DNA of 64,000 nucleotides from Marsupella aquatica (GCA_973895155.1 OZ316891.1:6233708-6297707); one strand, 5' to 3'; shown: positions 10,381 to 39,783, counted from the first letter of the stretch. Notes: generated by a model not told the origin, from the sequence alone. Made by a program: numbers and translations.

Positions 10381-13300
10381 ATGGCGTTTGCAATGCACGC
10401 AACCCTCGACTATATGTCGTTCGTGAAGAGTAGCTTAAATGACGAGCACAGACATGGTGAATTTTTGAAGGTCATCGAGGACGTCTCACACGATTTGAAG
10501 GCTCGGAGAATCGACAGAGACGGGGTGGGAGCGAGAGTGAGGCATGTGCTCAGAGGTTACCCGTTGCTCATTGATGGGTTCAACGTGTTTCTCCCCAAAG
10601 AGTACAAGATCTTTCTCAGTCCTGACGAGATACGAGTGAAGAAGAAGCAGCAGGCCCACTTCGACAATGCCATCGACTATCTCAACAAGGTGAAGACGCG
10701 GTTTCAGAGTGACGAGCATGTGTACTGGAAGTTTGTGTCCATCATGATTTGTTGGCGGAAGGGAACCATGTCAATCCAGGAAGTTCAGAAGGAGGTTATG
10801 CATCTCTTCAGTGAGCACTGTGATCTGGTCGACGAGTTCACCCGCGCGCTTTTTCATTTTGCCAGTCCAATATCCTCAATGGAGAAGACCGTCAGTGCGA
10901 TGGCTGCACCCGATGCTTCCGAATCACTGAATAGCTCGAGGGGAACGGGCATGTTTGAAGTGGAGGGGCAGTGGCAGACAGCAGGGGAGCAAGTAGCAAA
11001 TGCGGCGTCGCAGAGTATTAAGTGTGTTCGAGCTCCGGAAAGAATTAGAGACGAGACGAGTCAGGAAAGGATACCTGTTTCCGAGCTCGAGAAGGATCAG
11101 CAGAAGTCAAAAGATAAGGAGGAGAAAGATGCAGTGGATGAAGGCATGGAGAAGTATCCGGATGACCCGCTGATTGTGTGCTACAAGCGTAAGACTGCTC
11201 CCCGCTCTGCTCGGCGAGCCAACAAACTGATTCGACAGCAATCTCAGGCGGGGGAAGGTGGAGAAGCAATCGGGGGCCCATCGGGGTCTCCAGCAGACAA
11301 CATTCCTTCTTCCAAGCTCGCGAAGGATCAGCAGATCTCGAAAAATGAGAGCAGGAAGAGGGGCGGTGAGGTTGCTTGTAAAGGTGCAGTGGCTGACGGC
11401 AAGGAGAAGGATCCGGATGACTCGCAGTTTCTGCCCAACAAACGTAAGTCTGCTCTGCGACCCACCGAGCTGATTCGACAGCAGTCTCAGGTTGGCGAAG
11501 GTGGAGAAGTAAAGGAGGGCCCATCGGGGTCTCCAGCAGACAACATTCCTTCTTCCAAGCTCGAGAAGGATAAACAGAAGTCGAACGATGACCCGAACGA
11601 TGAGCTCGAGAGCAGGAAGAGAAGTGGTAAAGTTGTCTGTAAAGGTGCAGTGAATGACGGCAAGGAGAAGGATCCGGATGACTCGCAGATTTTGCGCTCC
11701 AAGCGTAAATCTGCTCTGCGACCGAACAAGCTGATTCGACAGCAATCTCAGTTTGGAAAGGGTAGAGAAGCAATGCAGGGCCCATCGGGGTCTCCAGCAG
11801 ACAACATTCCTTCTTCCAAGCTCGAGAAGGATCAGAAGAAGTCGAACGATGAGCTAGAGAGCAGGAAGAGGGGCGGTAAGGTTGTTTGGAAAGGTGCAGT
11901 GGATGACGGCAAGGAGAAGGATCCGGATGACTCGCAGTTTCTGCCCAACAAGCGTAAGTCTGCTCTGCTACCCACCGAGCTGATTCGACAGCGATCTCAG
12001 GTTGGCGAAGGTGGAGAAGTAAAGCAGGGCCCATCGGGATCTCCAGCAGACAACACTCCTTCCAAGCTCGAGAAGGATAAGCAGAAGTCGAACGATGATC
12101 TCGAGAGCAGGAAGAGAAGCGGTAAAGTTGTCTGTAAAGGTGCAGTGAATGATGGCAAGGAGAAGGATCCGGATGACTTGCAGATTTTGCGCTCCAAGCG
12201 TAAATCTGCTCTGCGACCTACCGAGCTGATTCGACAGCGATCTCAGGTTGGCAAAGGTGGAGAAGCAATGCAGGGCCCATCGGGGTCTCCAGCAGACAAC
12301 ATTCCTTCTTCCAAGCTCGAGAAGGATAAGAAGAAGTCGAACGATGAGCTAGACATCAGGAAGAGAGGCGGTAAGGTTGCTTGGAAAGGTGCAGTGGCTG
12401 ACGGCAAGGAGAAGGATCCGGATGACTCGCAGTTTCTGCCCAACAAGCGTAAGTCTGCTCTGCGACCCACCGAGCTGATTCGACAGCGATCTCAGGTTGG
12501 CGAAGGTGGAGAAGTAAAGCAGGGCCCATCGGGATCTCCAGCAGACAACATTCCTTCTTCCAAGCTCGAGAAGGATAAGCAGAAGTCGAACGATGAGCTC
12601 GAGAGCAGGAAGAGAAGTGGTAAGGTTATTGTTGAAGGTGCAGTGAATGACGGCAAGGAGAAGGATCCGGATGACTCGCACATTTTGCGCTACAAGCGCA
12701 GGTCTGCCCAGTGGGCCGACGAGCTGATTCAACAGCAATCTCAGGTGGGGGAAGGTGGAAAGGCAATGCAGGGCCCATTCGTGTCTCCCCTGCAGGAGAA
12801 TGACGACCAATTCTCGAAGAGTTCGCAGGAGCAGCAAGTTTTGTTCGACAAAGTGGAGGCTCTTGAAATTCCTAGCCTGAAGCCCTCATCACCTGTCAAC
12901 AAGGAGAACGATTCAAATGAGGGAATTGCGCAACTCTACCCTTTGAATGGGGAACGCTGTACGCCCAGCTACCGCCTCCTGCCCAAAAACAACCCAAAGG
13001 TATTTTCAACTCACCACTCAGAGCTAGCTTCTGGAGACCTCACCAACTGCTGCGTGTGTGTGGCACCTAAAAGTGATGACGATATTGTCAAGCGCAGGAA
13101 TAAAGATCATTCGAGGAAAGATGCGAGGAGTTTCCGATATGAAGATGCTCGGAATGAGCTCGATGCGCTAGTGGGACGGGCTGCCGATGCAGCTCAGAAA
13201 GTGAGAGACCTATTGGAATACATTAAGGATCCGAAATTCGAACAGCAGAAGCCTACATTTGTCTTAGAAGACCATTTCTCAGCTATCAATTTGATATGCA

Positions 13301-13527
13301 TCGAGCGCATCTATAAGGATCATGGGCTGGTGTTCAGTGACGAGTTACGCACAGGTCCATATACTGCTCTGCCTGTTGCACTTACTTTTTTGTGTCAGAA
13401 GCACGATGAATGGTTTCAGCGTCGGATCGATCTAGATGCAAAAAGTGTTGGCGGAGGTGTCCTCCGAATACGTAAGTCGCTCGATACTTCGACCCATCTC
13501 AATAGTAGGACAAGAAAAGCTTCGTAA
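10381..13527 (+). CDS. SIN3-like: Intronless, C-terminally truncated SIN3-like (SNL) paired amphipathic helix corepressor, 1048 aa
   Basis: PAH1 (LDYMSFVK...GYPLLIDGFNVFLPKEYKI), PAH2 (FDNAIDYLNKVKTRFQSDEHVY...LFSEHCDLVDEFT) and HDAC-interacting region (ERCTPSYRLLPK, FRYEDARNELD, CIERIYKDHGL, KSLD). No Sin3 C-terminal domain. Confidence 0.9.
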   Translation: MAFAMHATLDYMSFVKSSLNDEHRHGEFLKVIEDVSHDLKARRIDRDGVGARVRHVLRGYPLLIDGFNVFLPKEYKIFLSPDEIRVKKKQQAHFDNAIDYLNKVKTRFQSDEHVYWKFVSIMICWRKGTMSIQEVQKEVMHLFSEHCDLVDEFTRALFHFASPISSMEKTVSAMAAPDASESLNSSRGTGMFEVEGQWQTAGEQVANAASQSIKCVRAPERIRDETSQERIPVSELEKDQQKSKDKEEKDAVDEGMEKYPDDPLIVCYKRKTAPRSARRANKLIRQQSQAGEGGEAIGGPSGSPADNIPSSKLAKDQQISKNESRKRGGEVACKGAVADGKEKDPDDSQFLPNKRKSALRPTELIRQQSQVGEGGEVKEGPSGSPADNIPSSKLEKDKQKSNDDPNDELESRKRSGKVVCKGAVNDGKEKDPDDSQILRSKRKSALRPNKLIRQQSQFGKGREAMQGPSGSPADNIPSSKLEKDQKKSNDELESRKRGGKVVWKGAVDDGKEKDPDDSQFLPNKRKSALLPTELIRQRSQVGEGGEVKQGPSGSPADNTPSKLEKDKQKSNDDLESRKRSGKVVCKGAVNDGKEKDPDDLQILRSKRKSALRPTELIRQRSQVGKGGEAMQGPSGSPADNIPSSKLEKDKKKSNDELDIRKRGGKVAWKGAVADGKEKDPDDSQFLPNKRKSALRPTELIRQRSQVGEGGEVKQGPSGSPADNIPSSKLEKDKQKSNDELESRKRSGKVIVEGAVNDGKEKDPDDSHILRYKRRSAQWADELIQQQSQVGEGGKAMQGPFVSPLQENDDQFSKSSQEQQVLFDKVEALEIPSLKPSSPVNKENDSNEGIAQLYPLNGERCTPSYRLLPKNNPKVFSTHHSELASGDLTNCCVCVAPKSDDDIVKRRNKDHSRKDARSFRYEDARNELDALVGRAADAAQKVRDLLEYIKDPKFEQQKPTFVLEDHFSAINLICIERIYKDHGLVFSDELRTGPYTALPVALTFLCQKHDEWFQRRIDLDAKSVGGGVLRIRKSLDTSTHLNSRTRKAS
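11070..12790 (+). repeat. In-frame coding tandem repeat, 7 units of ~249 bp (83 aa), alternating A/B types
   Basis: The LIRQ/LIQQ motif recurs at about 11227, 11470, 11731, 11980, 12226, 12475 and 12724. Unit: GPSGSPADNIPSSKLEKD...KGAVxDGKEKDPDD...KRKSALRP. Confidence 0.97.
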
Positions 13528-16500
13528 AAGGCGAAAACTTTAGATGTGGATTTCGAAGCCCACGTTAGAAGTCATGCACGATATTTTGTTCCTTATCAGG
13601 AGGCTGAGACCCTTGAATGTATCTCGAAGTCGATGGAGATGGGACTTTCATTGTTATCGTTAGGAGGGGCTACCAACGTTCAGAGTTGACACCTGGAGAC
13701 AGCTAGCTCACTGCATTGCGCACCTAAAGCAATGGTGGCTAACTGATAGGACGTGGAGCCGTGGAGAGTGGTAAAACAAAGGAGGATGTTCATCCGACTT
13801 CACCACTAGGGACTCAAAGAGAACGCTTTGATCTATCAGTCAGAATATCACATAGATGCCAAATTTTCTAGATTCCTGTCAGGGAAAATTTGTGATCCCT
13901 GACAGAATGGATCAGGTCCGATTTTAGTCCTTCATTTTTGATTGGGAGGTTTTTGATTGAAGGCAAGGTAGTTGACGTTGGCGCTGACCAGCCTGAAAGT
14001 TTTTGATGGGAATGAATAAAAGACCGAGTCCGTTCAGAATTCTGGGATGTAGATCATATCGCTTGCTGTAGCAAGCGAAGAAGAATATCCTTCTAACTTA
14101 CGTCCTGGTGAATGCAGTCGAACTTTTATGTATCTAAAATAAGAACCTACCGTAGCACTGTGAATGGCACTTTAATATTGGAAACTCTGAGTCTGCACTA
14201 GAATTTGTACGTACTTAACCTGGCACCTCTGAGCCTGCGATAGGCTGGGCCACAAATGCCACTACACCAGTCCCATCGGTGCCATGGCTGAAAATCTTGA
14301 TGCAAAAGCTTACCTTTAATTCAGAGTTGAGGGTGTATTGCATCAAGCTGATCAGATAGACTTTTGAAATTTGAAAGGAAAGCTACGCTAGAATTTGAAA
14401 GAAATAATTGTTTTCGATTAGAGTGATAGATCAATGTTAGTTTGACTAGTGATCCAAGACAGGCTAATTGAAAAATAAGCTAGACTTTCAGATCGAGTGG
14501 ATGATCGAAGTTCTGCTTTTTAAATTTGCTATATACTGCTATTGAAGACTTGTTAGTGCGGCCAAGTGGTAAGAGAATCAGTTAGTAGCAAAACCGTGAT
14601 GAAAAGCAGACGTATATATATATATAATTGCTTCTGCTTTGATTGACGTCAATCGGTCAGAATCTGTCCGCTTCTCTAAATCTGATCATCATCGTCCAGT
14701 TTGGACCAGTGATACGCACAAGTGTATTTAGTGGGCAGTTTAAGTCTTAGACGTTTACTACGGTACTAGCTGTTTTCGATGACAGTTGTTGTGAGAGTGC
14801 CGCGGGTACGTGCCTCCCCATTTTCAATTCAATGCTCACCATGCACGCCACCCTCAATTCTCAACGGGTTCGCAGCGCATCGGGTAGTAGAGTGCTCGAC
14901 TTTGGGCAGTGAACCCGCAAGCAGAAATCATCATATCATTATATGTAGCTGAATCAATTTGTGCACAAGCCACATCTCGTGCTCGTTTGTGCTTAGCTCG
15001 CATTATTGACGATTGTGAGCAGCGGGGTGAGCAGTAGCGCAGCTTTTGAACAAAGATTACGCTATCGATGTATAGTCTAGCTCCAGTACGTCGAATCCCC
15101 AGTAAGAATAGACTGCAAGGAAGCGAAAACTTCCTCGAATTACAGTATGACGATGATGAGGCTGCTTCTGTTCGAGAGTACAGAGATAGTGGACTGTCGT
15201 AACTCTATCACTTTGTAGGCGCGAAGAACTCTACGAGATCGACGCCGAGTGTGTGGGCCCATCATGAATTTCCCGGTACGCAGTATGGTCTATCCGTACA
15301 TTTTTGAACAGTCTAGCTCGAAGTTCCTGTTGGCATTCCTATTGGCATTGTCAGTGTTGTTCTGTATTTGTGAAGAAACAAATCTCCTTTGAAGAAATAA
15401 ATTTCCTTTGAAGAAACAGTTAAATAAAGCAGACCCACATTTTGAGGGGTACATTCACTGCAGGGAACTCGCCCAACGTACAGGTCCTGCATGTGGCCGG
15501 TGACAAATTCAAGACGCTGTCATGCTGACTTACGGTTGAAGGACCTAAAATAATGTCTGCCGAATGATTACGGCTGCGTCAATCTATCATTAACAGCTAC
15601 TGCACCCATAGTTTCTCATGTCATGCTTCTCTTCGTATGTATTCGGCTGTTCTGTCTTCTTCAAAACTGCAATATTAGTTTTAGTTTTGTATGATAACAA
15701 TCAGTCTTCGAAGCTCTCGAATCCAGCTCTCTGCCAGCTTTTCTTTGTTCCCGAGTTCTAATCTGAACATCAAGCAAGCGTCGAAGAATTGATATTCACT
15801 CCTTCCAGTAGATGCAGCGAAATATTTAGCGAGAAATGTAGCTCAGGGCACTCGAGCCCCTCAAAACACTAATCTGTGTACTACACTGATAGCAAGAGAG
15901 CCGATTCATTGAATTTGCACAATGCATAGACTCTCGAAAATCATACTCCGTGTTGATTTAATTGCTCGAGCCGGGTTGGGAAGAGCAACCGAAGATGTTA
16001 TTGGGCTAGCTACTAGCCCCAAGTGTGTGTTCTGGCCTGAATGCACTTAGCTTTCTCGAGATAGCACCAAGCAACATTTGGACTGCTACTTTCATATGCT
16101 CACAATCTGATCTAGAGAGCGATCGGCCCTGCTTCCTGTTGCCACAACTGTAGAGATGTGGAAGAGGGGGGATGTTGTGGCAGAGCGGGAAACCAGCAAC
16201 GCCAAATGAATTTGCGCAATCATTGCGAGATTCCTCGAGCCACTCCTAAATGCGACTCAATCACTCTGGCTGTAGATAGTCAATTCCATCCTTGTCCATC
16301 CCTGTCCCTCTGGATGCTCCTTTTATAGTCACTGTTCATCTCCTCCTTTGCTTACTAACAAAAAGACGGTCAATGCCACATATTATCCACGTTCGTTCCA
16401 CCCTCCTGCTATAGTCATTGTTCATCTCTTCCTTGGCTGATCGACCCGTCCTTCCTTCCCCTCCTATATCTTACTGATAATTCGCAATGGAAACCTACTT

Positions 16501-17511
16501 TGAAAGCCTATTGTCTAGAGTGAAGCATCTAGACAGTAACTTCTAATTAATTTGAGCATAATTGAAGGTGAGGGTGAAGTTAGAAACGAGGGAGGGAGAG
16601 ATGAACCTGAAATAAACACTCTAACTGGAGGCATAATTGTGCAGACAAAAAGCAAAGACGGGGGAGAGATGAGAAAGACATCATGACCATTATTTTTTTC
16701 AAGGTACTTTTTGGTCCTCACTTCTATTTCCGCTCAAGGAACACGTAGTCAGGCTAGTAAGTTAATCATACCCACAGGCGTTAGAGGCTCATGGCGACTA
16801 AAATCTAATTACAAGTGTGCCAACTTTTAAATGCTACGTACTTTAATTTGAAAGTAAACTCGCACAGCATTGTTGCTCTCAGTAATGCACACTAAAAGCT
16901 GACTACTTCCGTGGCTAATCTAATCTGAAGGCAAGTATGAACATTGCAATTGATTCTCCTGCTTCGGCATCGTTGAGTCTATAGAAGTTTTTACCAGCCC
17001 AATTGTGGGCCAGAGCCTAACCATCATACCATCTAGTCGAACCTTACATCAATGTATAGTTCTCCAAAATGATCTTAATTTCCAGTACGCACGAGCCTTC
17101 AGGCGGACATCCCAATCATGTAGTTCACAGGTACATCAAGCCAATTCCTGCACAAAATATCTTTATATTGGAGTCCAAAATCACTGCAATAGTCATGCAA
17201 ATAACAGGAAATATCGGTTAATGGCAGTCACTTGATGAATACTCTCACAGACGCGTGCATCGTCAGTTCGACGTGTAGCGTCGTTATTAGGCAGTTGCCC
17301 CTCCGGAATTACAGCACTTCTTCCGACACCTCCACCTCGCAGGGTATGGGTTGAGGGTACTTTAAGCAGGACGTGGATGAATTTTACTCATTATTTCAGA
17401 CTCCCTACAGCAGAACAATGAGACAGCAGGGTGGGTTGTTGTCTGATTAATTTGGTAGCGATACAAGTCGTGATTTACGAACGTTTCGAAATAATCGTTC
17501 CATTCAAAACT

Positions 17512-20064
17512 ATGGAAGACTCCTGTGCTGTGTGTGCCGAGCCTTTGGAGTGGATCAGCTACGGGCCTTGCGGTCACCGTGAAGTGTGCTTTACATGCAT
17601 TGCACGGCTGCGCTTTGTCCTCAAGGACAAAAGCTGTTGCATTTGCAAGCGACATTGTCCAACGGTGTTTATTACGAAGGCTCTAGGTGCCTACACAAGG
17701 GTTGTGACAGATTGGGAATCGTTGCTGAATGACGGTAACCGCTCCGGGCAGAGGAATTTCTGGTATGACAGTGTTTTGGAAGCATACTTTGATGATGAGG
17801 GTCCCTTCAAGATCATCAAAGCAATGTGTACTCTATATTGTAGCATCTGTGAAAGGGCTGCTGAAGGAGAACGAGAATCAGTGGCCAACGGCATGATGCA
17901 AAAAGGCCACAAGTTTAAGAACATCGACAGCTTACGGCACCATCAGTCTACCGTGCACAAGGTATTCATGTGCCAATTGTGCTTAGAAGGCAGAAAGGTG
18001 TTCACAAGTGAACAGAAGTTATATTCCAAGACCCAACTGTATCTGCATTCTCGAAGGGGTGATTCAGAGGTTGACCATGACAATGAAGAGGAACAAGGGC
18101 AATTTTCGGGACATCCTATTTGTCATTTCTGCCGAAAGCCATTCTATGGCGACAATGAACTCTACCAGCACATGTCACGAGCTCATTACACCTGCCACAT
18201 TTGTCAAAGAGTCAGGCCAGGCCACTACGAATATTTTGCGAACTATGATAATCTAGAGGCCCACTTCCGACAAAGGCATTTGCTTTGTGATAATCACGAG
18301 TGTCTCGCCAAGAAGTTTGTTGTCTTTCCCAGCGAATCAGAGCTGAAGAGGCACAACGCCACGACACATGGTAAAACTATGTCACGTTCACAGAAAAATG
18401 CTGCGTTGCAATTACCGGTAAGTTTTCAGTACCGTCCACCTGGACAAGAGTGCCGACGAGTTGGCAGATATCAAGATGGTCGTCTTTACCCATTGACTGC
18501 GAGACATGACCGGTCTCTCGTTTTGCCTGTTAGTGGGGGGTCAGAAAATCTTGAAAATGCTGTTCCAAGTGCTGCTTCAGAATCGTGCGTCTTATCTCCC
18601 AGCTGCAGTAATGAGCCATCCGCAACGATGGACAGTCAAGGAATCACATCTCAGATTCGAGGTTCTGCTGACATTGAGCCTCGATATATCGCTGCTGTGG
18701 TGGGTTCGAGACCCTCGGCTCTTGGCGATTCAGCCTTCCCACCTCTACCAGGAAGTTCCAATTGTGCTCAACACCGAGTGACGCTGGCAACTCATGGCCC
18801 AGCCTCAATGGCAACTCTGATTGGTGGGATAGGATCAATGGGAGGTGCACGAGCAGGAATACAGGCCTTGAATGCGGTTGACGCCCCAGCAGGTTTTCAG
18901 ACTTCCCAAGCTCATAATAGTTTCCGACCCACTACTGGGAATGACAGCATTGGACTAGCCCATTCCAAGGTTGCTGTTAATAGCACACAGCCCTCGCCAG
19001 TTGCCATTCAAAGGGCAAATAACTATGGAAGAGCTTTAAACATCACAAATGGAATATTAGACAGGGAAATGGACGCTGATGCCAACCAACAAAGCAGCAA
19101 ACTTCTGCACTTAAGTGTTGAAGAGATTCGTACAGGGAATAAAGCTTTGGTACAGCGCATCCGTGCAGGGTTTGAAGGCAATGAGCAGAAGTTTGAAGAC
19201 TTTAAGGTTATATCTTCTCTTTACCGAAAAGGAGGATTAAGTTCGAAAGAGTACTATTTCCATATTGCATGCCTTGGCCTTTCGTATGTTGTTCCGGACC
19301 TGGCCAAACTCTGTCCTGACTCAAGCAAGGGGAAAGAGTTGATGGAATTACATAATGCTGGACTGCAGCTTACCAAGCATGGTGTTGACCCTACACGTGC
19401 ACTTGCTTGTCCGGCCGGGTCATTTTCAAGCTCTTCCTCAATTGCTGCTGCTCCAACGGTCAACGGCTCTAGTTCTTACTCGGGAATAAGTGCCTCTAGA
19501 GCACCAGCTACTGATGCTCGAGTTGAAGTCTTGTTCACTGATGGGTATCGTAATATGGCAGATTCCTGGAGTAGTCCCCCAAGTATTTCATGCACGATTG
19601 GTGTTGACGCCATGCGGAGCTCAGAGCGACAAATGTTAAATGAGCATGCGGCGGCGAGAGACCATACACCACCGCTGAGCGCCACTCCTCCTCTCCTTCC
19701 AAACTCTTCTCATACTCCTGTCTCTGAGAAGCCCTCGGCAGTGCTCGATGGAGGTTGGGTTTGTGGATCTTGTAGATCAGTGAACACTGAAGATTTTCGT
19801 CTGTGTGCTGTTTGTGGGGCTACTAAGCATAGTCAAGAGGCAAAAGGTGGAGTGTCCAGTTCTTTGGTTGGAAATGAGAGGACGAAGAAAAAGGCTGCTA
19901 AATTTGAAAGAGTTCGGCTGGGTGCAGGTTCAGCCTCATCTTCGTTAGATTCCACTGCATCTCCCGTAGTTCCGGCTGACGTGGACAATGGAAATAAGAA
20001 CTCGAGCAAATCACGATGTCGTGGGGTTTGGAAAAATGGTGGAGGCCAGAGGCTGTTTCAATAG
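17512..20064 (+). CDS. HEL2: Intronless RING/C2H2 E3 ubiquitin ligase HEL2/ZNF598 (ribosome quality control), ~850 aa
   Basis: ATG at 17512 gives MEDSCAVCAEPLEWISYGPCGHREVCFTCIARLRFVL..CCICK (RING). Also C2H2 fingers (GHPICHFCRKPFYGDNELYQHM, HYTCHIC), ECLAKKFVVF, a RanBP2-type finger WVCGSCRSVN...CAVCG, and the conserved tail GVWKNGGGQRLF. Confidence 0.93.
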   Translation: MEDSCAVCAEPLEWISYGPCGHREVCFTCIARLRFVLKDKSCCICKRHCPTVFITKALGAYTRVVTDWESLLNDGNRSGQRNFWYDSVLEAYFDDEGPFKIIKAMCTLYCSICERAAEGERESVANGMMQKGHKFKNIDSLRHHQSTVHKVFMCQLCLEGRKVFTSEQKLYSKTQLYLHSRRGDSEVDHDNEEEQGQFSGHPICHFCRKPFYGDNELYQHMSRAHYTCHICQRVRPGHYEYFANYDNLEAHFRQRHLLCDNHECLAKKFVVFPSESELKRHNATTHGKTMSRSQKNAALQLPVSFQYRPPGQECRRVGRYQDGRLYPLTARHDRSLVLPVSGGSENLENAVPSAASESCVLSPSCSNEPSATMDSQGITSQIRGSADIEPRYIAAVVGSRPSALGDSAFPPLPGSSNCAQHRVTLATHGPASMATLIGGIGSMGGARAGIQALNAVDAPAGFQTSQAHNSFRPTTGNDSIGLAHSKVAVNSTQPSPVAIQRANNYGRALNITNGILDREMDADANQQSSKLLHLSVEEIRTGNKALVQRIRAGFEGNEQKFEDFKVISSLYRKGGLSSKEYYFHIACLGLSYVVPDLAKLCPDSSKGKELMELHNAGLQLTKHGVDPTRALACPAGSFSSSSSIAAAPTVNGSSSYSGISASRAPATDARVEVLFTDGYRNMADSWSSPPSISCTIGVDAMRSSERQMLNEHAAARDHTPPLSATPPLLPNSSHTPVSEKPSAVLDGGWVCGSCRSVNTEDFRLCAVCGATKHSQEAKGGVSSSLVGNERTKKKAAKFERVRLGAGSASSSLDSTASPVVPADVDNGNKNSSKSRCRGVWKNGGGQRLFQ

Positions 20065-21041
20065 CCAAATTTAAGGACTGTTATGTATCGATGAGGCATG
20101 AAATCAAGGCCCGGTCAAGCTAGACTACATGATAGCATTTGTGGGTCGCAACAATTCCAAAGCTGTAATCATACACTTCAGGCATACAGGTTGTGCTTTC
20201 CTGTACGTTGAGCACTCATGTTTCAACAAGCTAATGAGTTACTGAAACTAGAATTCAAAATTTGAGCGCTGCACCATTGTTCTCTGCGTCAGGCATTATC
20301 GTTGATAAAGCTCTTAGTATTATAATTCAGGTTCTTAGCATTACAATTCAACTATTGAAGGACGAGATATGATTCATTTTACTTTCCTTGGGAGTGCTTT
20401 ATGATTTAGGGAGACTCCGAAGGAAAGTTGCTCTCCCTCCGCTAACTGTAATGAATTGTGTGCTGGAGCACATCTTCGCTCTTTAAATCCAAGCCAATGC
20501 GCAGTAAGATTTGAGCTTGAGTTTTGCTTTCAACTGAATCATGGCGTTCCCACATCGGCTCATCGTAATTGATGAAGGTTCACACTGCAAAAACAGTTCT
20601 GGAGTTGACGATGAGCCAGCGTAAAGGTAATCAACTAGAATCAGGAGACCAATGTAAGGTGAGGACAAATACTGCAATTTCTCTATTACATAGCAACAAA
20701 TTCAAGAACGATGGTCGGGGAAACAGTTAATGTAATAAGACTACACTCTGCAGTACTTTACAAAATCAGGGTCCATTCTTGACCACTCCTGCCTCTACAA
20801 GACGACATGAGCGGGTCCATTTCCATCGAATGGGTGGGCAGACTTAACTACCTCCCTCCCGCCTCCGGCCTGACAGAAGAGGCAACAATAACTGACGCTA
20901 GCTACGAGAATCAATTCTCAATCGCTCGATCGCATGGCAAAACTAAACGACCCACTGTTGGTAAGAGACGGAAGATCGACGATGCCCAGTTCCCAAAACG
21001 CATCGTTACTCACCAACTTTAATGATATTCGAACCCTTCAC

Positions 21042-22661
21042 CTAACTCCCCCAACTGTCTGGTGTAGACCTTCGGTTGCACATCATGGCAGGAACTGACA
21101 AGGCTAATGTCTTCAGCAGACTCACATCATCCTTTGAATTAGTACTTAGGCTAGAATATCGCCTTACTGCTGCCGCACTAAGCAAATCCTCGAAGAGCGA
21201 CATTTCGTCTGTATGCATAGGATCGTCGAACGATTTTGGATATGTTGATACCAAAGTACGTAGCTTCTTGTACGACACAATGTAAACTACCTGCTTCGAT
21301 AACCACTGTTGGTAAGACGACTCAAAATGACACTCTCTCGCATAGTTAGGGTCAGATTTGTCGAGCTCTTGCTCCCTATCTTTCGACTCTTCCTTCATCA
21401 ATTTTGTCTGCTCAGAGAAATTCGAGCGCGTTTCGAGAATAAACTTGTCCATTTTCTTTTGGTATAACTTCTCATACCCAGGGTCACACGGCTCAATTTC
21501 ATCTTCCATTGCTAACATATTTGCAACGTGCTGGTCGGCCTTGCTTCGGACAATGAACACTGGGATTCGGAACCGATTGCAGTTTTCAATGATACCTACG
21601 TCAGTCGTGGTGAAACGTGTATCATACACGACAATGACGAAGTCGAAGACAAACAAACCTTGCTGGTTGAAATACTGCCAATCTCGCACCTTGAGAGTCC
21701 CAGCACCTGGTATGTCATACCACACAAACCGTGAATACGGAAACTCTTGACGGAGGTCTGGATACCTCCTAATGGTTGATGTCGTCTCTGTCACCCCAAC
21801 TTTCGCTGCGCTGGAATGGTTGATTGTGAGACCGCGGAACGCATTTACTAGAGAGGATTTCCCGCTACCCGAGACACCAAAGACAGCAAAATGTAGCTTC
21901 TTGGGATCGTATTCAATCCACTTCATTGCAGCATCGTATTCCTCCCTAGTGGGCCATTCAATGGGTTGAATGCTTCGTTGGAGAGCGATTCGCGCATCTT
22001 TGGCGGCCTTCATAGCATCTTGTTCGCGCTGTTGTGAGGCCAGTCGGTCACCTTTCGGTTTGAGCCCCTTCGCACTGAATTTCTCGTCTGTGGGGCGTTT
22101 GGCGGCTCGTTGGGAGGCTCCGAATCGTTCTTCTTCAACTTTGAGCCTTGCAGCAAGTTTGACTTCTTCTGCGCGTTTTTCCGAGGCCCGTCGCTCAGCT
22201 CTGCGTCTGAACGTACATACTTGTGCTTGGTGTTGTTCTTCTGCGCTTTGCTTGGACGCCAATTGGTCAGATGCAGCTCGGAGCCTTTCAGCGTGTTCAT
22301 CTTCTTCTCGGCGTTTCATTTCAGCCCGCTGTTGGTATTCCGCACGCTGTTGTTCTTCTGCGCTTTGCTTGGACGCCAATTGGTCAGATGCAGCTCGGAG
22401 CCTTTCAGCGTGTTCTGCTTTCTCTCGGCGTTTCATTTCAGCCCGCTGTTGGTATTCCGCACGCTGTCGGTCAGCTTCAGCTTGACGCCTTGAGGCAAAT
22501 TGAGAATCCTCTGTTCCACATGTACATTTGATATACCCCTCAATCTCGCTCACTGTATCATTAGTAGGCATAGGTGGATTTGAAAACAATCTGCATACTA
22601 AACCAACCAAGCCTACAACGAGCCCAGCCGTAGCGGCTACAATCATTTCAAATGGGTTCAT
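21042..22661 (-). CDS. Immunity-related GTPase (IRG/IIGP p47-type) with N-terminal hydrophobic anchor and coiled coil, ~539 aa, intronless
   Basis: G1 AVFGVSGSGKSSLVNAFRGL, G2 VGVTETT, G3 WYDIPGAG, G4 VRSKAD. N-terminal IVAATAGLVVGLVGLVC. First ATG is at 22661; the ORF track starts at an upstream TTG. Confidence 0.9.
   Translation of the reverse strand: MNPFEMIVAATAGLVVGLVGLVCRLFSNPPMPTNDTVSEIEGYIKCTCGTEDSQFASRRQAEADRQRAEYQQRAEMKRREKAEHAERLRAASDQLASKQSAEEQQRAEYQQRAEMKRREEDEHAERLRAASDQLASKQSAEEQHQAQVCTFRRRAERRASEKRAEEVKLAARLKVEEERFGASQRAAKRPTDEKFSAKGLKPKGDRLASQQREQDAMKAAKDARIALQRSIQPIEWPTREEYDAAMKWIEYDPKKLHFAVFGVSGSGKSSLVNAFRGLTINHSSAAKVGVTETTSTIRRYPDLRQEFPYSRFVWYDIPGAGTLKVRDWQYFNQQGLFVFDFVIVVYDTRFTTTDVGIIENCNRFRIPVFIVRSKADQHVANMLAMEDEIEPCDPGYEKLYQKKMDKFILETRSNFSEQTKLMKEESKDREQELDKSDPNYARECHFESSYQQWLSKQVVYIVSYKKLRTLVSTYPKSFDDPMHTDEMSLFEDLLSAAAVRRYSSLSTNSKDDVSLLKTLALSVPAMMCNRRSTPDSWGS
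22231..22467 (-). repeat. 117-bp (39-aa) in-frame tandem duplication in the IRG coiled coil
   Basis: QRAEYQQRAEMKRRE(KA/ED)EHAERLRAASDQLASKQSAEEQ occurs twice; nucleotide starts at 22231 and 22348. Confidence 0.95.
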
Positions 22662-23136
22662 CACGCCCAAAAGTTACGAACTGCTCTTCGTTTGGTAAAG
22701 GAATTTATAAGGCAGACGTTGTTCTAGAGTACTGCGAGGGACTGTCCACAAATTACAGCAGCAGAAAGCAGGAGATCAAAGACGGTACAGGAAGGTGGCA
22801 GACAGACACGGACGAAACCGCACCGAGCTGATGTGCATGCAACGAACCCCGCCTCAGGTACAGGATGGTATCCAAACTTTGTTACCACAATATTGGCGAG
22901 GTCTCTGCAGCTCGATCGCAAGACGGCACCCAAGCCAACCCACGCCACGCCAAAGCTCAGATCAGCTCACTCCCCCGGCCCAGCCTCGGTGACAGACACA
23001 AGGAGTACAGGCCTCCCTCCACCTTTGTCACTTATCAATGGAGATCATTCGCGACGGGAAGACACAGAAGATCGAGGTTCAATAACCTTTAACGATTACG
23101 TACAGTACTTCTGTCTGTTTCGGTGATTGAAACTGT

Positions 23137-23490
23137 ACATGGCTGTAACACTTAGAGTGAAAGTTTCACGATTGGATTCGGTGAAAAAATGTTGAGTGAA
23201 TCATAGATTAGAGTGAAAGTTTCACGGTGGCAGTAAACAATGTGGCGAATCCCTGGTGACTTACATGACTTTAATAGCTTAGAGTGAAAGTGTCTTTGTA
23301 GCAGACTTAAATGACTCTAATAGCTTAGAGTGAGTTTCACGATTGCAGTAAACGACGTTGCAGTGACGAATCCCTGGTGCCTTACATGACTGTAAGCTAG
23401 CTTAGAGTGAAGTTTTCACGACAGCAGACCATGACTACAACCGCATAGAGTGAAAGCTTCACGATAGCTTAGAGTGAAAGTTTCACGATA
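23137..23490. repeat. Degenerate minisatellite with 7 copies of TAGAGTGAAAGTTTCACG upstream of the IRG gene
   Basis: Core copies near 23153, 23209, 23280, 23326, 23403, 23446 and 23470. The core contains the palindrome GTGAAA-G-TTTCAC. Confidence 0.9.
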
Positions 23491-26400
23491 TCAGTGGAAC
23501 GATGTTACTCTTGAGAATCCTTCATGACCTGCTCAGATGATATTTTTGGTGACATTATACTTGGCATGTGGTATTGGGGTTACTCGTTTATATATTCTGC
23601 CAAAGTGTATTTTTTTATACCGCTTTTAAGTAGGTTGCCAGTAAAGATGCTTAAAATAACAATACTGCCACTACTTATTATGTATTTGTAAATATGCCAC
23701 ACTTTTGCTCTACGGTTACTTGGGTTAAGCATAATGCCACATGTTTCTTCACAACTGGATCTGATTTCTGTAAAGGTTATTTTCGGTAGGTTGAAACTTC
23801 ACTTGCTTGCAGTACGTTTCACTGCGGTGTGGGGGAATTTTCATTTGAGAAACAGAGCAGACCTGCTGCTGTTATGTGGATCCGCTTTGATTTAATAACA
23901 GAGAAAGACAACACAGAACATGAAAGCAACACGAGAATGAAAAGCAACACGAGAAACAAAAGGAATGCTTGTCGCTCAGGTTGTCGTGTGGGGTGTTGAT
24001 CAGCGAAATGCAAAGGGAAAGGGAATTGAGCAGTGTGGAAGCTTGATCAGCAAACTCAGCTTGATCAAAGCTCATAGGGATCAGCAAAAGGAATTCTGGG
24101 AGCATCAAATTTAGGGTGCATGAACGGTTCTTCAAGTTTGATGATCTCTCTCAATTCAGTGATCAGTTTGGTTCTTCGGTTCGGTGATCAGTTTGCTTCG
24201 ATGATCGGCTGATGCAAAAATTCTGCAGCGCAACAATTTCTGGAGTGGAACGCAACATCGTGTTCTCAAGCTGCTCTTGAATTCTCTTTGATTTTAAGTT
24301 TTTTAGTGAATACTCAGTTTATTCCCCTTAATTTTCAAATTGCTCCCTATCCACATACTTTTCATTGAACTGCTCTCTCTTTATTGTGTTGCTTTTGTAT
24401 GAGACCCACCAGCAATTCATTTGAAAGAGCCTTAACTCTCAATACTACTTGTCGCTTTGAGGACGACTATGGCTGTCAATAAGTCCACTAATAATCAAAC
24501 CGTAAAATGGATTTAGTCCTGGGACCTACTACAGTCCTTGATTTTCGCATGCCAAAAGCAAATCTTAGCATTTAATCCAGAGATAATTTGGTGACGCACC
24601 GCAGACATAACATTACCCGAGCATCAATCGGATTCGTACAAAAAATAAGTAATGCTTGAAAATTTCTAGAAGTCGTTGTAACTCTCCTCCCCTAAATCCT
24701 CTACCTCACAGGGAACCTGTGGATAAGTGGTAACAAAAAGGGCTGCTTTTAGAAAATTGGTTTCTACACTAAAGAGCAATTCGAACGGCTAAAAATCTCA
24801 ACACTTGGAACTATGTTAGAACTGGAAGGAAGCAGATGATGCACGAACTTTAACGCGTGATATCTCCATACAACAGGGGTCGTTCAGCAATTGCAACGAA
24901 TGTAGTTCTAGCAGGTTTGAGCCAGATTCCAGCAAGTCTGACTGGAGCCAGTTGTCAAGCTTTGATTGTCTTTTCCAGATTCACAATTCATACTCGTTGT
25001 GGAGGACCGAGGAGAGGAGACTAAGAGCTCCACAGTTCATCATCTTCCACTCAAGACCCAGTTCGCAGGCTTTAGGGACGGTCGCTGGACGAAGCAATCC
25101 ATCACTACCGCCAAAAGGGGAGCTGGAATTCCCTTGTGCCCAGGTAATGTACCGCATGCAGACGTGCTCATCGATCGCTATAGACAGTGATGAAGCGCTC
25201 CGATCCCCACATATATGATCAGATCCACAAGATCGAAAAGGGTACTGAGATGGGCCACTCATAATTGCGTTTTTGCATAGCATGGTGGCTCTGGATCTCC
25301 CTGAGACGTTTTCTGAATCCACTGACATATCTCTGTTTTGTCCACCACACCCAGCACATCTTGCAGACAGTCTTACAATGATAGTGCATGCGGTGGATAC
25401 GATAAGTGCAGGATTGGGGCGTCTTCCCGGGAGCCTGCGCTTCGACAAGGTAGACTGTATTGCATTTTGAAGAAGTAAATTAAATGTGACCGACGCCATT
25501 TTAATGGAATGATTCCCGGGTAAACATGTACTACATGATTGTGAATAACATTGCATTACAAAAAAAGTTGGAGGTGGGTTCCACTATTTCCCCCGCCCCA
25601 CCGATCCCACCAAAGAAAAAGTTCGCTTTTGCTAGAAAAGTTCGTTGCCTCACGGACCAGCTTAATTGAAGGTTGACTACTCACTCTCATTTCGATTTTC
25701 TCTGCTCTAAATTTGATATTTCGAAGCTGTTTGCGGAATTGAAATGACCCTCTCCACCTTCAATGGAAAAATGTATTGTACTAACAATGAAAATAATAAA
25801 TCAACGAAAGAGATTGCTCTAGCTCATTCACTTGACATTGGAAAGATGTGTGATGTATTGGCATCAATTTATTATGCACACGATCAGAAGCAGAGAGGAG
25901 AATAGCAATGAATAGAAAAGATCTTTCGTAAGAATGCGCAGCTTCTGCCCCAGTTTGTGTCAAATTGAGATATCGAAGATAAGACACGTGTCAAGACAAG
26001 ATCTGTAAATATATTCATTGTGGGATCCAACGACTTCCATATCTGTTCAATGTTCGGCACTTCGGCAGGTTTTTTGCATGTGTAGAGGATTGCAGGGCGG
26101 GGGGGGAGGTAGTTGGGATTCATTGCGTGCAAATTGCTCTCGATATGGTGGACGGAATGATTGATTAGTTTGAGCACTGGACGACGTAAAACAGAACTAC
26201 AATAAACGGAAATCCAGAAGAGTGTGACCTGGTTGCCGCTCTCTCACTCGTCTCAACTTAGCACCACACAGCACAAGTTTAGGGTTTAGGGCGAGGACAT
26301 GTTTCACGTCGCGAGAAGTTCATGTGTTTTTTTTATTAATGCAAACATCCTTGGCAACGCTTTGTTTGTTTGGCGTGGGGCGCAGCCACATAACCTTTGC

Positions 26401-26808
26401 TTCTCAATTCAGCATATTCTCTCATGGATCGACGAGGACTCCGAGCTTTCAACACAATGACCTCTGTCTATTCCCTCCTGTTCTGAAGACATGTCTAGGG
26501 GGGGGCAAGCCACCGGCATAAAACTCCCTCCTGTACGACAAGTTGAAAACCTTGATGAAGCCTGAATCGGTATTGGCACAGAGTAGACTCTACCTATGTT
26601 TACAGCAATTGAACAATTTTTCCATTGATCCTCTTCAGCTAGGTTGCTTGAGTCTTGTCGTGTATAATTACTTTGAACATTACATGCACGTGGCATAGGT
26701 ACTAGTCTCCCAGCTTGTTATCTTGCCTTCACTCTGTTTCCATGTGTGAGCTTATTTGGCTAACTCTCTACACAATAGGGTAGCCCAGTGATTGCACATC
26801 AAAATGTG

Positions 26809-26985
26809 GAGGTATTTGCTTGATCACCCCCAAAATGAAACACTGTACTTGATAACCCCCTGAGGTCTATCAATGGTCCAGATCTGAGATCGTAAGGTCC
26901 ATCAATGGTCCAGATTGGGTAAAAATATTGAGGGGGTTGATTAAGCAAACCTTTTCCAGAAGGGTGTCTACTAAGCATATCTTTC
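26809..26985 (+). mobile_element. MITE family B copy 1 (~177 bp, long imperfect TIRs, 10-bp TSD; Mutator-like)
   Basis: GAGGTATTTGCT...AGCATATCTTTC. Flanks TCAAAATGTG / TAAAAATGTG. Homologous to 39607-39783. Confidence 0.8.
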
Positions 26986-27292
26986 TAAAAATGTGACAGT
27001 TGCATAGTAATTAGAATTTATAACACTCATTTTGATTTAAACACAAAAGTTAGGTTTCTAATGGTCTGGAATAAAATCTTCCATTGTATATTGTCACAAA
27101 TTTTGATATGCAATTACTGGGAGGAAAAGGTTGGTGTGCAAAAAGTGGATATTTTCCTCTACTAACAGTAGTGCAATGCCATAAGTAATGGCGGTAAATT
27201 TCATTTTTTTAATTTAGAAATAAAGTATACACTGACAAATCAATGTTGTACATCAAAATGATAAAATATTCCTAACATATGCAGTACATCCC

Positions 27293-27946
27293 TCATTTTG
27301 TCTGGGGTCTGGTTGAATAAGTAGACCTCCCAATACCGTGCATGCGTAACGGAGAATGTGGATTGGTGTTGTGGGAATGTGAGGAACGAGATTGTTGTGA
27401 CTTGTTTCTTGATTTTCCAGGGTATCTTCCACCCATTATAGTTGAAAATTTAGGTCGAAAAGGTTGCCTGCAATGTCTATTTGGCGATAAGCACGAAGAA
27501 CTATAAGATTGGCAGCAAGAGCTAGATTGCCCACCCAAAGCAGGATGTCCAAGAGCAACATCAAGCTGACTACCCAGGGCAGGGCGGCCAAAGTGTGTTG
27601 TTTGAGAGCGAATTATGCTTTGGGGAGGTGGTTGTGAAAGCGGGTGTGTCTCATCAGGGAACTCTGGATGCACATATGGGTTTATCCAAGGGCTGGGTTG
27701 TGGTCTACGAGACTTGTCTCGTTTATAGACCCTCAAACTTTGCATCCATAGAGAAATGTCATCATCACAATAAGGTAAATGGAGGTCCCTTTTGATCTTT
27801 GCTTCACTTCTTTTCATCAAGAAACTTGGAACCACTTCCTGGTCATTTTGCATCGGGGGTTGTGCACCTTGGAGGCGGAGTTTTTGTGACTGTATCCATT
27901 TTCTAAGGGCAGGGTTACCAGTTGACTTTTCCTTCTTTCGATGCAT
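27293..27946 (-). CDS. Hypothetical basic, S/P/Q-rich protein, 217 aa
   Basis: A 654-bp ATG-to-TGA ORF in AT-rich surroundings. No recognised domain; small internal repeat G(R/H)PALG.Q. Confidence 0.5.
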   Translation of the reverse strand: MHRKKEKSTGNPALRKWIQSQKLRLQGAQPPMQNDQEVVPSFLMKRSEAKIKRDLHLPYCDDDISLWMQSLRVYKRDKSRRPQPSPWINPYVHPEFPDETHPLSQPPPQSIIRSQTTHFGRPALGSQLDVALGHPALGGQSSSCCQSYSSSCLSPNRHCRQPFRPKFSTIMGGRYPGKSRNKSQQSRSSHSHNTNPHSPLRMHGIGRSTYSTRPQTK

Positions 27947-29349
27947 TTTTAGAGTTTGAGAAGTTAGCCAAATGTGTTAATGCTATCCAATTGTGGAACA
28001 AAGAGTGTTGACCGCTCTTGAAAGCTTACTACAATAGTCAAGAGTACTCCTCCGTATTATCTTGATTGATGTGGGCAGACTTCAGCACCCAACAATCACC
28101 AAAGTGAACTGGGAGCATCACCAGGATACTTAAAATTTTCACTCTTGAGTCAGCAATGGCTCTTTTTTATGTATGGTGACAACCATCACAACAGTTAGAA
28201 AAAACATATGCAAAGGCTATGATATTTAAATTTGCTAAATACTTCTACAGTAGACTGTACTTTACTAAAGTTGTATCTCCTAAGTTTACTGCTCTAACTT
28301 GTTGTTGTCATATTTAAAGTTAGTAAGCAGGTTAGCCGTGGTGAACAATACTCCAGGCCTGATGTCCACACGATAGATGTTTGTACTTGGATACTCTAAA
28401 GCGGGGATCTAATATTGGGTGATGTGACCAGCTTCATAGCAGCTATGTTCACTTCAATTCAGATGATAGTTGTTTGAACTTGGACACTTCAAAGAGATCA
28501 TTTAAAGTTTGAATAATTGACCAGTTTCATGGTGGCTAATTTGAGCGTGATGAAGAAAATGAATAATGTTTTAATCAGGGTTGTCTAAGAGCTTCAAACC
28601 CAAATAATGGTGGTAAAGTCCATACCATCATTGAAGGTCTTAGCAAGATAGATAGCTTTTAACATTTTTCCGATTGTCTGACTCTAAAACAAGTTTTGCT
28701 TTACCAAAAAAATTGCAGAATGAATGACCAGCAAGCAGACCGAGGGGGGGGGGGGGGAGTAACTAAAGTTTTAACATTAACTGAACGTTTTCAAAGCACA
28801 TGAAATTTTGTGTTTTCTTGTCACTATTTTTTGTTAGTAAAGTTGATTGTTCCATCTCAAAAATATATTTAATATTTCAAATGTGTTCAGATTTATGGGC
28901 GCCTATTTAGAGCCTACATTTGTAGTTAGTCAATTTATAGATTATATGCACTTCTTGATAAAAACACATGCACAAGTAAGATAAATTTGAAATGTCAGAT
29001 GATGCCAAGAAGACGACAGTGCTTGCCACGCTTTCCAAAAAACCCAACCAAAAATATAGATGAACAGCCTACAAGAAAAAATTCCAACTGTGCCCCTTAT
29101 TGGGCCTCTCCTTTATACCCTGATTTCCTTTATTTTGTGATATGAATGAAATCTCAACAATTTTAATAAACAATTCCAAAACACAAGCTCACACTTTTGA
29201 GAGAGTTTGACGGCAGTTTAAGTAGACCCGTCCAAGTATAAGTTAGCAGAATGATCGACAAATTCTCACTTAGGCTCACACTTGTCACAGCAAAACCTGC
29301 AGGTCAACATCAAGAGAAGTTCACTGAGCAAGCTTTAGATTTCTTAAGG

Positions 29350-31012: not shown

Positions 31013-31333
31013 ATGTCTGGGTACGATATCAGTGCGGAGAGAGAGGAAGCTCGCCTTAATCCAAGGCGAAAGGCTATGGAAGATTATGGTGTCCGCCCAG
31101 ACGTCCACGATCTTCTACTACGCTTCATGACTGATCTCCTCACAACACAACCTCCAGATCCAGTAGGTTTCATGTACAAGTGGTCGATAGACGAGAAGAA
31201 GGAACCAAAGTGGAAGCCTCCCCCAATTGATGTGTTCAAGTCTCCACCAAAAAGTCCACCTAACAATACCAAGCCATCTGCATCTAAACGACCACAACCA
31301 GTCAAAGATTGTGCCGCCACAATTCACTTCTAG
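31013..31333 (+). CDS. Small protein with RIIa/Dpy-30-like dimerisation-docking motif and Pro/Lys-rich tail, 106 aa
   Basis: VHDLLLRFMTDLLTTQPPDPVGFMYKW fits the LLxxFxxxLLxxQPxDPxxF pattern. An acceptor attatag just upstream and apparent non-coding exons (~30619-30807) suggest a spliced 5' UTR. Confidence 0.7.
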   Translation: MSGYDISAEREEARLNPRRKAMEDYGVRPDVHDLLLRFMTDLLTTQPPDPVGFMYKWSIDEKKEPKWKPPPIDVFKSPPKSPPNNTKPSASKRPQPVKDCAATIHF

Positions 31334-39606: not shown

Positions 39607-39783
39607 TAGGTATTTGTTTAATGGACCCCCAAAATGAAAATTGTTACTTGATCAACCCCCTGAGGTCTATCAACGGTCCAGATCTGAGATCAAAAAGTCC
39701 ATCAATGACCAGATTGGGGAAAAATATGGACGGGATTGATTAAGCAAATTTTTTCCAGAAGGGGTCTACTAAACATATCTCTC
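39607..39783 (+). mobile_element. MITE family B copy 2
   Basis: Shares aaccccctgaggtctatcaa.ggtccagatctgagatc with copy 1. Flanks TACTTTTTTT / TACTTTTCTC. Confidence 0.78.

Follow-up and report, generated by a model that had tools for sequence, protein, structure and literature searches.

Does a leafy liverwort carry an IRG-type GTPase gene of its own, where did the gene come from, and what might it do there? The accessible part of PMC1297648 (2005) reported no clear IRG outside vertebrates and regarded IRGs as a resistance system of vertebrates whose origin was obscure. The gene lies in a 64,000-nucleotide stretch of the Marsupella aquatica genome, hereafter the window. An earlier note on this DNA had described it as intact, intronless and membrane-anchored, and had proposed that it came from a fungus, given its close resemblance to basidiomycete proteins.

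An intact IRG-like GTPase gene

The gene is a single unbroken, intronless frame of 539 codons, with an in-frame stop directly upstream of the ATG and a protein that starts with MNPF. All GTPase motifs quoted in the earlier note were confirmed: G262-VSGSGKS-S270, GVTETT (289-294), YDIPG (315-319) and RSKAD (372-376). Pfam IIGP (PF05049) matched residues 252-382 with 79.5 bits (E 3.4e-22; cutoff 24), covering positions 32-158 of the 375 in the profile. In a search of PDB sequences, 13 of 13 matches were mouse IRGs (best E 1e-16). The features of the locus are as follows.

21042..22661, minus strand: IRG-like GTPase ORF, 539 aa (P0001); intact frame, Pfam IIGP, PDB matches
22581..22655, minus strand: hydrophobic helix, predicted membrane anchor, residues 3-27, without Gly2; Kyte-Doolittle, model, N-termini of Pezizales proteins
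22542..22586, minus strand: F-x-x-P-P-x-x-x-N-D-T-x-x-x-I motif, residues 26-40; common to fungal relatives
21972..22559, minus strand: long stalk of helices (residues 35-230), predicted to be a coiled coil; predicted structure
22231..22464, minus strand: tandem duplication of 117 nt (39 aa); copies 97% identical, missing from one allele
21153..21971, minus strand: IRG-type G domain with linker helix, residues 231-503; sequence alignment and structural match
Key residues of the G domain: G1 262-269, E292 (Irga6 E106), T294 (T108), D316, R349, D354, K374/D376
21288..21533, minus strand: helical insertion of 82 residues between G4 and the last strand; model and comparison
22703..22709, minus strand: weakly supported TATA-like element, 42 nt upstream of the ATG; read from the sequence
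17512..20064, plus strand: HEL2/ZNF598 paralogue, a neighbouring host gene; ties the locus to a leafy-liverwort genome

The two copies of the duplication occupy 22231-22347 and 22348-22464. Since it is missing from one contig of sequencing run X3, the duplication is polymorphic and recent; the earlier note had also called it recent. Within the window, no second copy of the GTPase gene was found by tblastn, and Rfam gave no matches. About 0.5-0.8 kb upstream of the gene (23137-23494), a 41-nt repeat occurs in six degenerate copies; it may be regulatory or represent a small satellite.

The gene lies in the liverwort genome

Run X1, which is possibly the source sample, gave one 4734-nt contig that covers 17527-22260 with 0 mismatches. 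This short-read contig joins the HEL2/ZNF598 gene to the G domain at a depth of 14.6, about that of the flanks, and therefore the GTPase gene is not contamination. In runs X3 and X4, from a second study, both the gene and its flanks were present as diverged alleles of similar depth, and X5, a low-depth run from a third study, also held a diverged allele. In X4, two versions were present at near-equal depth, both in the GTPase gene and in the flanks. Across 15000-28000, X3 and X4 contained two haplotypes about 2% apart at near-equal depth, which could be explained by pooling of plants, by polyploidy or by a pair of cryptic species.

The HEL2/ZNF598 neighbour was 80% identical to its counterpart in Calypogeia fissa, 71% in Marchantia and about 60% in seed plants, and it grouped with a Calypogeia paralogue (SH-aLRT 99). 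This affinity to Calypogeia indicates that the host is a leafy liverwort. This HEL2/ZNF598 neighbour is itself intronless and groups with the faster-evolving Calypogeia copy; it is possibly a retrocopy.

Fungal contamination or chimeric assembly, which a fungal-like sequence in an organism growing among fungi might suggest, is excluded by the contig that bridges the two genes and by the series of alleles, and it is further opposed by the closest named relatives among the matches listed, all of them liverwort genes from scaffolds 8-42 Mb long, and by a GC3 of 0.47 beside 0.43 and 0.56 in the neighbouring genes, so that we give it practically no weight.

Several other elements were seen in the window. 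A short repeat at 26810-26987 and 39608-39785, with copies 87% identical and a depth several hundred times that of the flanks, is likely a miniature transposon. A PIF1-like helicase fragment (23-352) is likely a Helitron remnant. An intronless SIN3-like ORF with PAH and Sin3 co-repressor domains and a long internal tandem repeat lies at 10381-13527, and first exons of two ABC transporter genes, ABCG-like by appearance, lie at 43872-44444 and 60597-60968. A 106-aa ORF at 31013-31333 had no Pfam match; its middle part presumably resembles a RIIa/Dpy-30 docking motif.

Allelic variation

The pooled runs contained 37 coding substitutions, of which 13 were synonymous and 24 non-synonymous, and none created a stop. 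Over the whole gene pN/pS was 0.52 and not significantly below 1 (p 0.07), with haplotypes pooled and transition bias ignored. The first 56 codons held nine non-synonymous and no synonymous changes (Fisher p 0.015 against the rest), and the remainder held 13 synonymous and 15 non-synonymous changes (pN/pS 0.32, p 0.003). Because the regions were chosen by domain, in addition to the pooling and the ignored bias, these figures are indicative. Two well-supported internal indels, of 6 and 117 nt, preserve the frame. A third indel removes 1 nt from the last codons and makes the protein just one residue longer. One X5 contig, at depth 4.3, carries an internal 1-nt deletion that is either an error or a broken allele.

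The gene thus appears to be constrained by purifying selection outside the N-terminus; the signal of selection holds for that part and not for the gene as a whole. The whole-gene ratio, the indels tolerated in the stalk and the possible frameshift allele in X5 would also suit a passenger gained by horizontal transfer and now subject to drift, whose frame is open by chance and which is functionless and little expressed. We regard this as quite improbable, since the substitutions include no stop, the two well-supported internal indels keep the frame, no catalytic residue is damaged, and there are a full-length relative (P0002) and four copies in Calypogeia.

The catalytic core resembles that of animal IRGs

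Residues of Irga6 were mapped onto the liverwort protein through a HMMER alignment. K82, G103, E106, T108, D126, R159, D164 and D186 of Irga6 correspond to K268, G289, E292, T294, D316, R349, D354 and D376. Among 119 aligned sequences, K268 was conserved in all, R349 in 118, and E292 and D354 in 117 each. The motifs of the GKS subtype are present (G1 GxxxxGKS at G262-S269, G2 T294, G3 DxxG at D316-G319, G4 KxD at K374-D376), and Ala320, which aligns with Irga6 Ile130, is a small residue and not Gln. Ten residues of the Irga6 catalytic interface could be mapped: five are identical (G103, E106, T108, R159, D164), S132 is conservatively replaced by T, and four are changed (E77, T102, K161, K162); N191 and K196 fall outside the mapping. 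The protein is like mouse Irga6/IIGP1 and the other GKS-type p47 GTPases in its G-domain fold, GKS P-loop and switch-I Glu and Thr, and like Irga6 in keeping the equivalents of R159 and D164 and the G4 KxD. Its sequence identity to fish IRG domains is only 25-29%.

According to the available part of PMC3042988, Glu106 is essential for GTP hydrolysis in Irga6, within a G-domain dimer. On the strength of this biochemistry, the liverwort protein is likely an active GTPase that would use E292 in G-domain-to-G-domain dimers.

Outside the core the two proteins differ. Irga6 has about 413 residues, and the helical domain at the C-terminus of IRGs (about 150 residues) is absent from the liverwort protein. 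Where Irga6 has its N-terminal helical domain, the liverwort protein has a hydrophobic helix together with a stalk about 190 residues long, the G4 insert is 82 residues long, and Gly2 is missing. The designation of the gene as an IRG-type GTPase thus stands for the sequence, fold and motifs of the G domain, and not for the C-terminal region. We rejected its classification as a classical IRG because that domain is absent; the protein is IRG-like at its catalytic core and outside IRG membership by domain architecture. For the same reason, the suggestion that it attacks pathogen-containing membranes as IRGs do is an analogy only.

Predicted anchor, stalk and G domain

An AlphaFold model was built from the alignment of 119 sequences (mean pLDDT 81.6). 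It contains a helix at residues 3-27, long helices between 35 and 230 (35-138, 142-184 and 204-230), an alpha/beta G domain that starts at residue 256, an insert of helices (396-456) and, last, a short tail; pLDDT is below 50 at residues 137-152 and 181-202. The 17 best structural matches were all IRGs (Z 15.3-19.6), headed by Irga6 (1tpz; Z 19.6, rmsd 2.1 over 184 residues), and mitofusins came next (Z 14-15). The match to Irga6 stops at about model residue 503, which corresponds to Irga6 255, and 36 residues are left.

The N-terminal hydrophobic helix of the earlier note was found again, with a mean Kyte-Doolittle value of 2.22 over residues 7-25. In a search within the fetched set, residues 1-48 matched the N-termini of proteins from the Pezizales Ascobolus, Tricharina and Wilcoxina. 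Among 252 sequences scanned, 51 had a looser N-x-T-x-x-x-I pattern within the first 120 residues and 107 started with MG; the liverwort protein has no such N-myristoylation glycine. Lacking the C-terminal helical domain, the protein would have to bind membranes through its N-terminal helix, and the model suggests that residues 3-27 probably hold the GTPase in a membrane in place of that domain. In many relatives such a helix occurs together with Gly2.

The G4 insert of 82 residues is long compared with that of a fish IRG (39) and of three fungal proteins (45-57). It is also long in Ascobolus (71), Ceratodon (66) and the liverworts (82-84).

Relatives in fungi and bryophytes

A protein search gave 709 matches, and the best 120 included 81 from fungi, four from Calypogeia, two from Ceratodon and 33 without a taxon. 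Among the taxon-assigned members of these 120, none came from a vascular plant, an alga, an animal or a prokaryote. The best match among those listed was P0002 (73% identity), and the Calypogeia relatives were about 60% identical to the liverwort protein. An exhaustive search gave 1863 proteins, the best 150 of which included another Ceratodon protein, the third, and a single fish protein that has three IRG domains. Homologues from algae, hornworts or Marchantia may stand further down, beyond the best 120 of 709 and 150 of 1863 matches. In prokaryote genomes, only two weak archaeal matches were found, over 31-39 residues (E 6e-5 and 2e-4), which did not suit as an outgroup. Viral contigs gave no relative, either with the single protein or with the alignment as query, and there is thus no sign of a viral carrier. 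In the Atlas, the domain was nearest to an IIGP cluster made up mostly of basidiomycete proteins; clusters from chordates, rotifers and bacteria came after it.

Uncharacterised proteins named as containing an interferon-inducible GTPase domain occur in Pezizales (Ascobolus, Tricharina, Wilcoxina, Trichophaea, Sphaerosporella) and in Agaricomycetes (Phlegmacium, Boletales). They share the full architecture of the liverwort protein, namely a hydrophobic helix, an N-x-T motif, a coiled coil, a G domain and a short tail, at 37-55% domain identity. Unlike it, many relatives start with MG, and those of boletes often have two G domains. In the best 120 of 709 matches, Phlegmacium, Tricharina and Calypogeia had several copies per genome, often on contigs of equal length. 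In loci L001 and L004, whose closest match is a Wilcoxina protein, the T348/R349 junction is interrupted by a GT-AG intron of about 55 nt. The liverwort gene has no such intron, and 13 of the best 150 matches end at this position. An ankyrin-repeat gene with a short N-terminal exon (L004, 3032-6162) lies near the fungal-type IRG gene.

Four Calypogeia fissa proteins (P0041-P0043 and P0047) fell in the same clade as the Marsupella protein at 61-67% domain identity, and three of Ceratodon purpureus (P0274, P0085, P0090) at 46-53%. In P0085 and P0090 the IIGP domain is fused to a kinase and, unlike in the Marsupella protein, the membrane helix is missing; P0389 is a kinase-IIGP protein with a C-terminal HMA domain. 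Pfam found no match in the N-terminal region of the three kinase-IIGP proteins, whose N-termini may be MLKL-like. HMA domains act as integrated decoys in plant immune receptors, and these proteins are candidate kinase immune receptors with an integrated GTPase. A search for long or fused forms gave three matches among 889 candidates and no animal outgroup. Beside the moss proteins stood environmental sequences (P0049-P0064), full-length and apparently intronless, two of them on contigs of 252 and 468 kb.

The earlier note had placed IRGs outside the standard flowering-plant families and pictured a possible undescribed plant module. Plant members do exist, as the Calypogeia and Ceratodon genes show, and the Marsupella gene is not unique: IIGP is tabulated in 60 of 115 bryophyte genomes and six of 300 tracheophyte genomes, and also in algal domain combinations, in the available data of PMC13069868. 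Any transfer would therefore be old and not peculiar to the Marsupella genome. IIGP goes unmentioned in the main text of that paper. No paper describing a plant or fungal IRG-like family was found in the literature searched, most subscription papers lying outside its scope, and the IIGP term was absent from the stored portions of the supplements of PMC11228847 and PMC12890914.

Phylogeny and origin

From about 300 domains, careful trees were built with 56 and with 43 of them, the former under LG+C20 PMSF and the latter after removal of Ascobolus and of all sequences without a taxon. The root was formed by the three domains of the one fish protein, on a very long branch. In the 56-domain tree, the Marsupella protein, P0002 and Calypogeia formed a clade (100/99), which joined Ceratodon, eight further sequences without a taxon and two Ascobolus proteins (96/92). 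A branch with 98/100 support separated 18 other Agaricomycetes from all of these, Pezizales and Phlegmacium. Bryophytes were nested among fungi in 975 of 1000 bootstrap trees, fungi were monophyletic in none, and the root fell on the stem of plants plus Ascobolus in 25. In the 43-domain tree, liverworts and moss formed one clade (100/98) that was sister to Pezizales (89/80), and fungi were monophyletic in two of 1000 bootstraps.

Nearest to the bryophyte proteins in these trees are Pezizales ascomycetes and Phlegmacium. A basidiomycete donor was rejected, since the highest scores come from boletes, which rank so high through having two G domains. Path lengths, which do not depend on the root, were 1.16 from the Marsupella protein to Pezizales, 1.10 to Phlegmacium, 1.45 between Pezizales and the other Agaricomycetes, and 5.1 between fungi and fish. 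The gene is likely of fungal origin and acquired by horizontal transfer, and the sequences further suggest that it was likely acquired from an ascomycete before the lineage split from Calypogeia. The nesting and the fungal nearest relatives favour the proposed transfer, but fungal monophyly withstood the AU tests (p 0.103 and p 0.141), and with the single fish outgroup this makes the transfer likely, not proven.

The AU result would also allow vertical inheritance, in which fungi and bryophytes retained an IRG-like GTPase of early eukaryotes that most vascular plants lost. Table S4 of PMC13069868 lists IIGP as an ancestral domain with losses at N3, N4 and N10 (tracheophytes, mosses plus liverworts, and Mesostigma plus Chlorokybus, as the figure text reads), and the algal domain combinations and the IIGP-like clusters of rotifers, chordates and bacteria point the same way. 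However, its screen for transfers considered prokaryote and virus donors only. Moreover, trimmed domains of the Marsupella protein and the best fungal proteins are 53-55% identical and those of fungi and fish 23-33%, although fungi and animals are closer kin. The Marsupella protein is also closer to Pezizales than Pezizales are to other Agaricomycetes, and a plant clade excluding fungi and fish was narrowly rejected (p 0.029), a result driven by Ascobolus, which was included in that test. Vertical inheritance is therefore improbable.

A history of two separate transfers, into liverworts and into mosses from a lineage related to Ascobolus, or of one old transfer followed by back-transfer into Ascobolus, fares much better and is quite possible, though we lean somewhat against it; it is compatible with either of the functions discussed below. 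Two Ascobolus proteins group with moss and environmental sequences (99/94) inside the bryophyte-containing clade, the same rejection of plant monophyly fits such a history, and the long G4 insert is common to Ascobolus, Ceratodon and the liverworts. However, the Ascobolus branch is long (0.36 stem), liverworts and moss form one clade when Ascobolus is left out, and the environmental sequences that group there could be moss or fungus, except P0274, which is Ceratodon. The position of the Ascobolus immersus proteins P0080 and P0088 may mean that they are closest to the donor or that they came from a plant.

Some Pezizales parasitise mosses and liverworts, which would give a route for transfer from an ascomycete. 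The proposed direction, host group and defence role are those of known fungus-to-bryophyte transfers, such as fruit-body lectins, microbial-type terpene synthases and KP4 killer proteins (accessible parts of PMC12513842 and PMC12890914). Unlike these lectins, enzymes and toxins, the Marsupella protein is a large GTPase, predicted to be membrane-bound, and neither paper names it in its main text. PMC12513842 reports 1,809 transferred families and no GTPase in its main text; its HGT tables (Supplementary Data 8-11) may contain the family.

Possible function

Our best explanation is an ascomycete-derived, IRG-type GTPase of liverworts that would act in defence as an anchored, stalked, GTP-hydrolysing dimer. 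The N-terminal helix would sit in a membrane, the long stalk would hold the G domain away from it, and the G domains would dimerise and hydrolyse GTP as in Irga6, with E292 as the catalytic residue. GTP binding would then drive the clustering or tethering of membranes. This could take place at the interface with a microbe or in a cell-death response; for such clustering or tethering we see about even odds. As a whole, the explanation is put forward tentatively, at slightly less than even probability.

A role in defence is likely in our reading of the sequences, because the genes occur in several copies, with a patchy distribution and a variable N-terminus, and because kinase-IRG fusions exist, with and without HMA. 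The features counted as hints, each of them indirect, are the multi-copy genomes of Phlegmacium, Tricharina and Calypogeia, the tandem G domains of boletes, the kinase-IIGP proteins of Ceratodon, the kinase-IIGP-HMA protein P0389, and the 9:0 ratio of non-synonymous to synonymous changes in the N-terminal 56 codons.

A serious rival is that the protein, equally fungal in origin and active as a GTPase, serves a housekeeping or metabolic role at membranes, at lipid droplets or oil bodies or as an organelle tether. The IRG protein GM4951 reaches lipid droplets through its N-terminal helices (accessible part of PMC12749288), and homology to the IRG family therefore does not fix the function. The layout of anchor, stalk and GTPase would suit a tether, and mitofusins follow IRGs among the structural matches. 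We nevertheless consider such a role unlikely, as the patchiness among bryophytes, the expansion of copies, the variable stalk and the kinase and HMA fusions would fit genes driven by conflict better. In Marchantia, the accessory gene Mp4g05240, which encodes an interferon-induced IFI6/IFI27-like domain, is listed as 'up' at two infection time points in supplement file 2 of PMC12890914, as far as that file is available. It is another animal-immunity-like domain in a liverwort.

Implications

Transfers from fungi to bryophytes are already known to be common, and IIGP has been tabulated in about half of bryophyte genomes. The Marsupella gene belongs to an uncharacterised fungal-type subfamily that was probably borrowed by bryophytes. 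A widespread subfamily of fungi and bryophytes with the same catalytic core and a different predicted anchor bears on the origin of IRGs and on how a G domain may act alone. Ceratodon is a tractable moss with both stand-alone and kinase-fused copies, and the question can thus be tested by knockout and imaging.

A bolder view, speculative and rather doubtful at present, is that fungi have a large, undescribed IRG-based defence system of their own, made of membrane-anchored, stalked GTPases that are often tandem and clustered. Mosses and liverworts would have taken it from Pezizales-like fungi, possibly twice, and mosses would have built it into kinase receptors that also contain an integrated HMA domain. 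If this were true, IRG-type cell-autonomous immunity would exist in three kingdoms, and the bryophyte version would be a borrowed fungal weapon.
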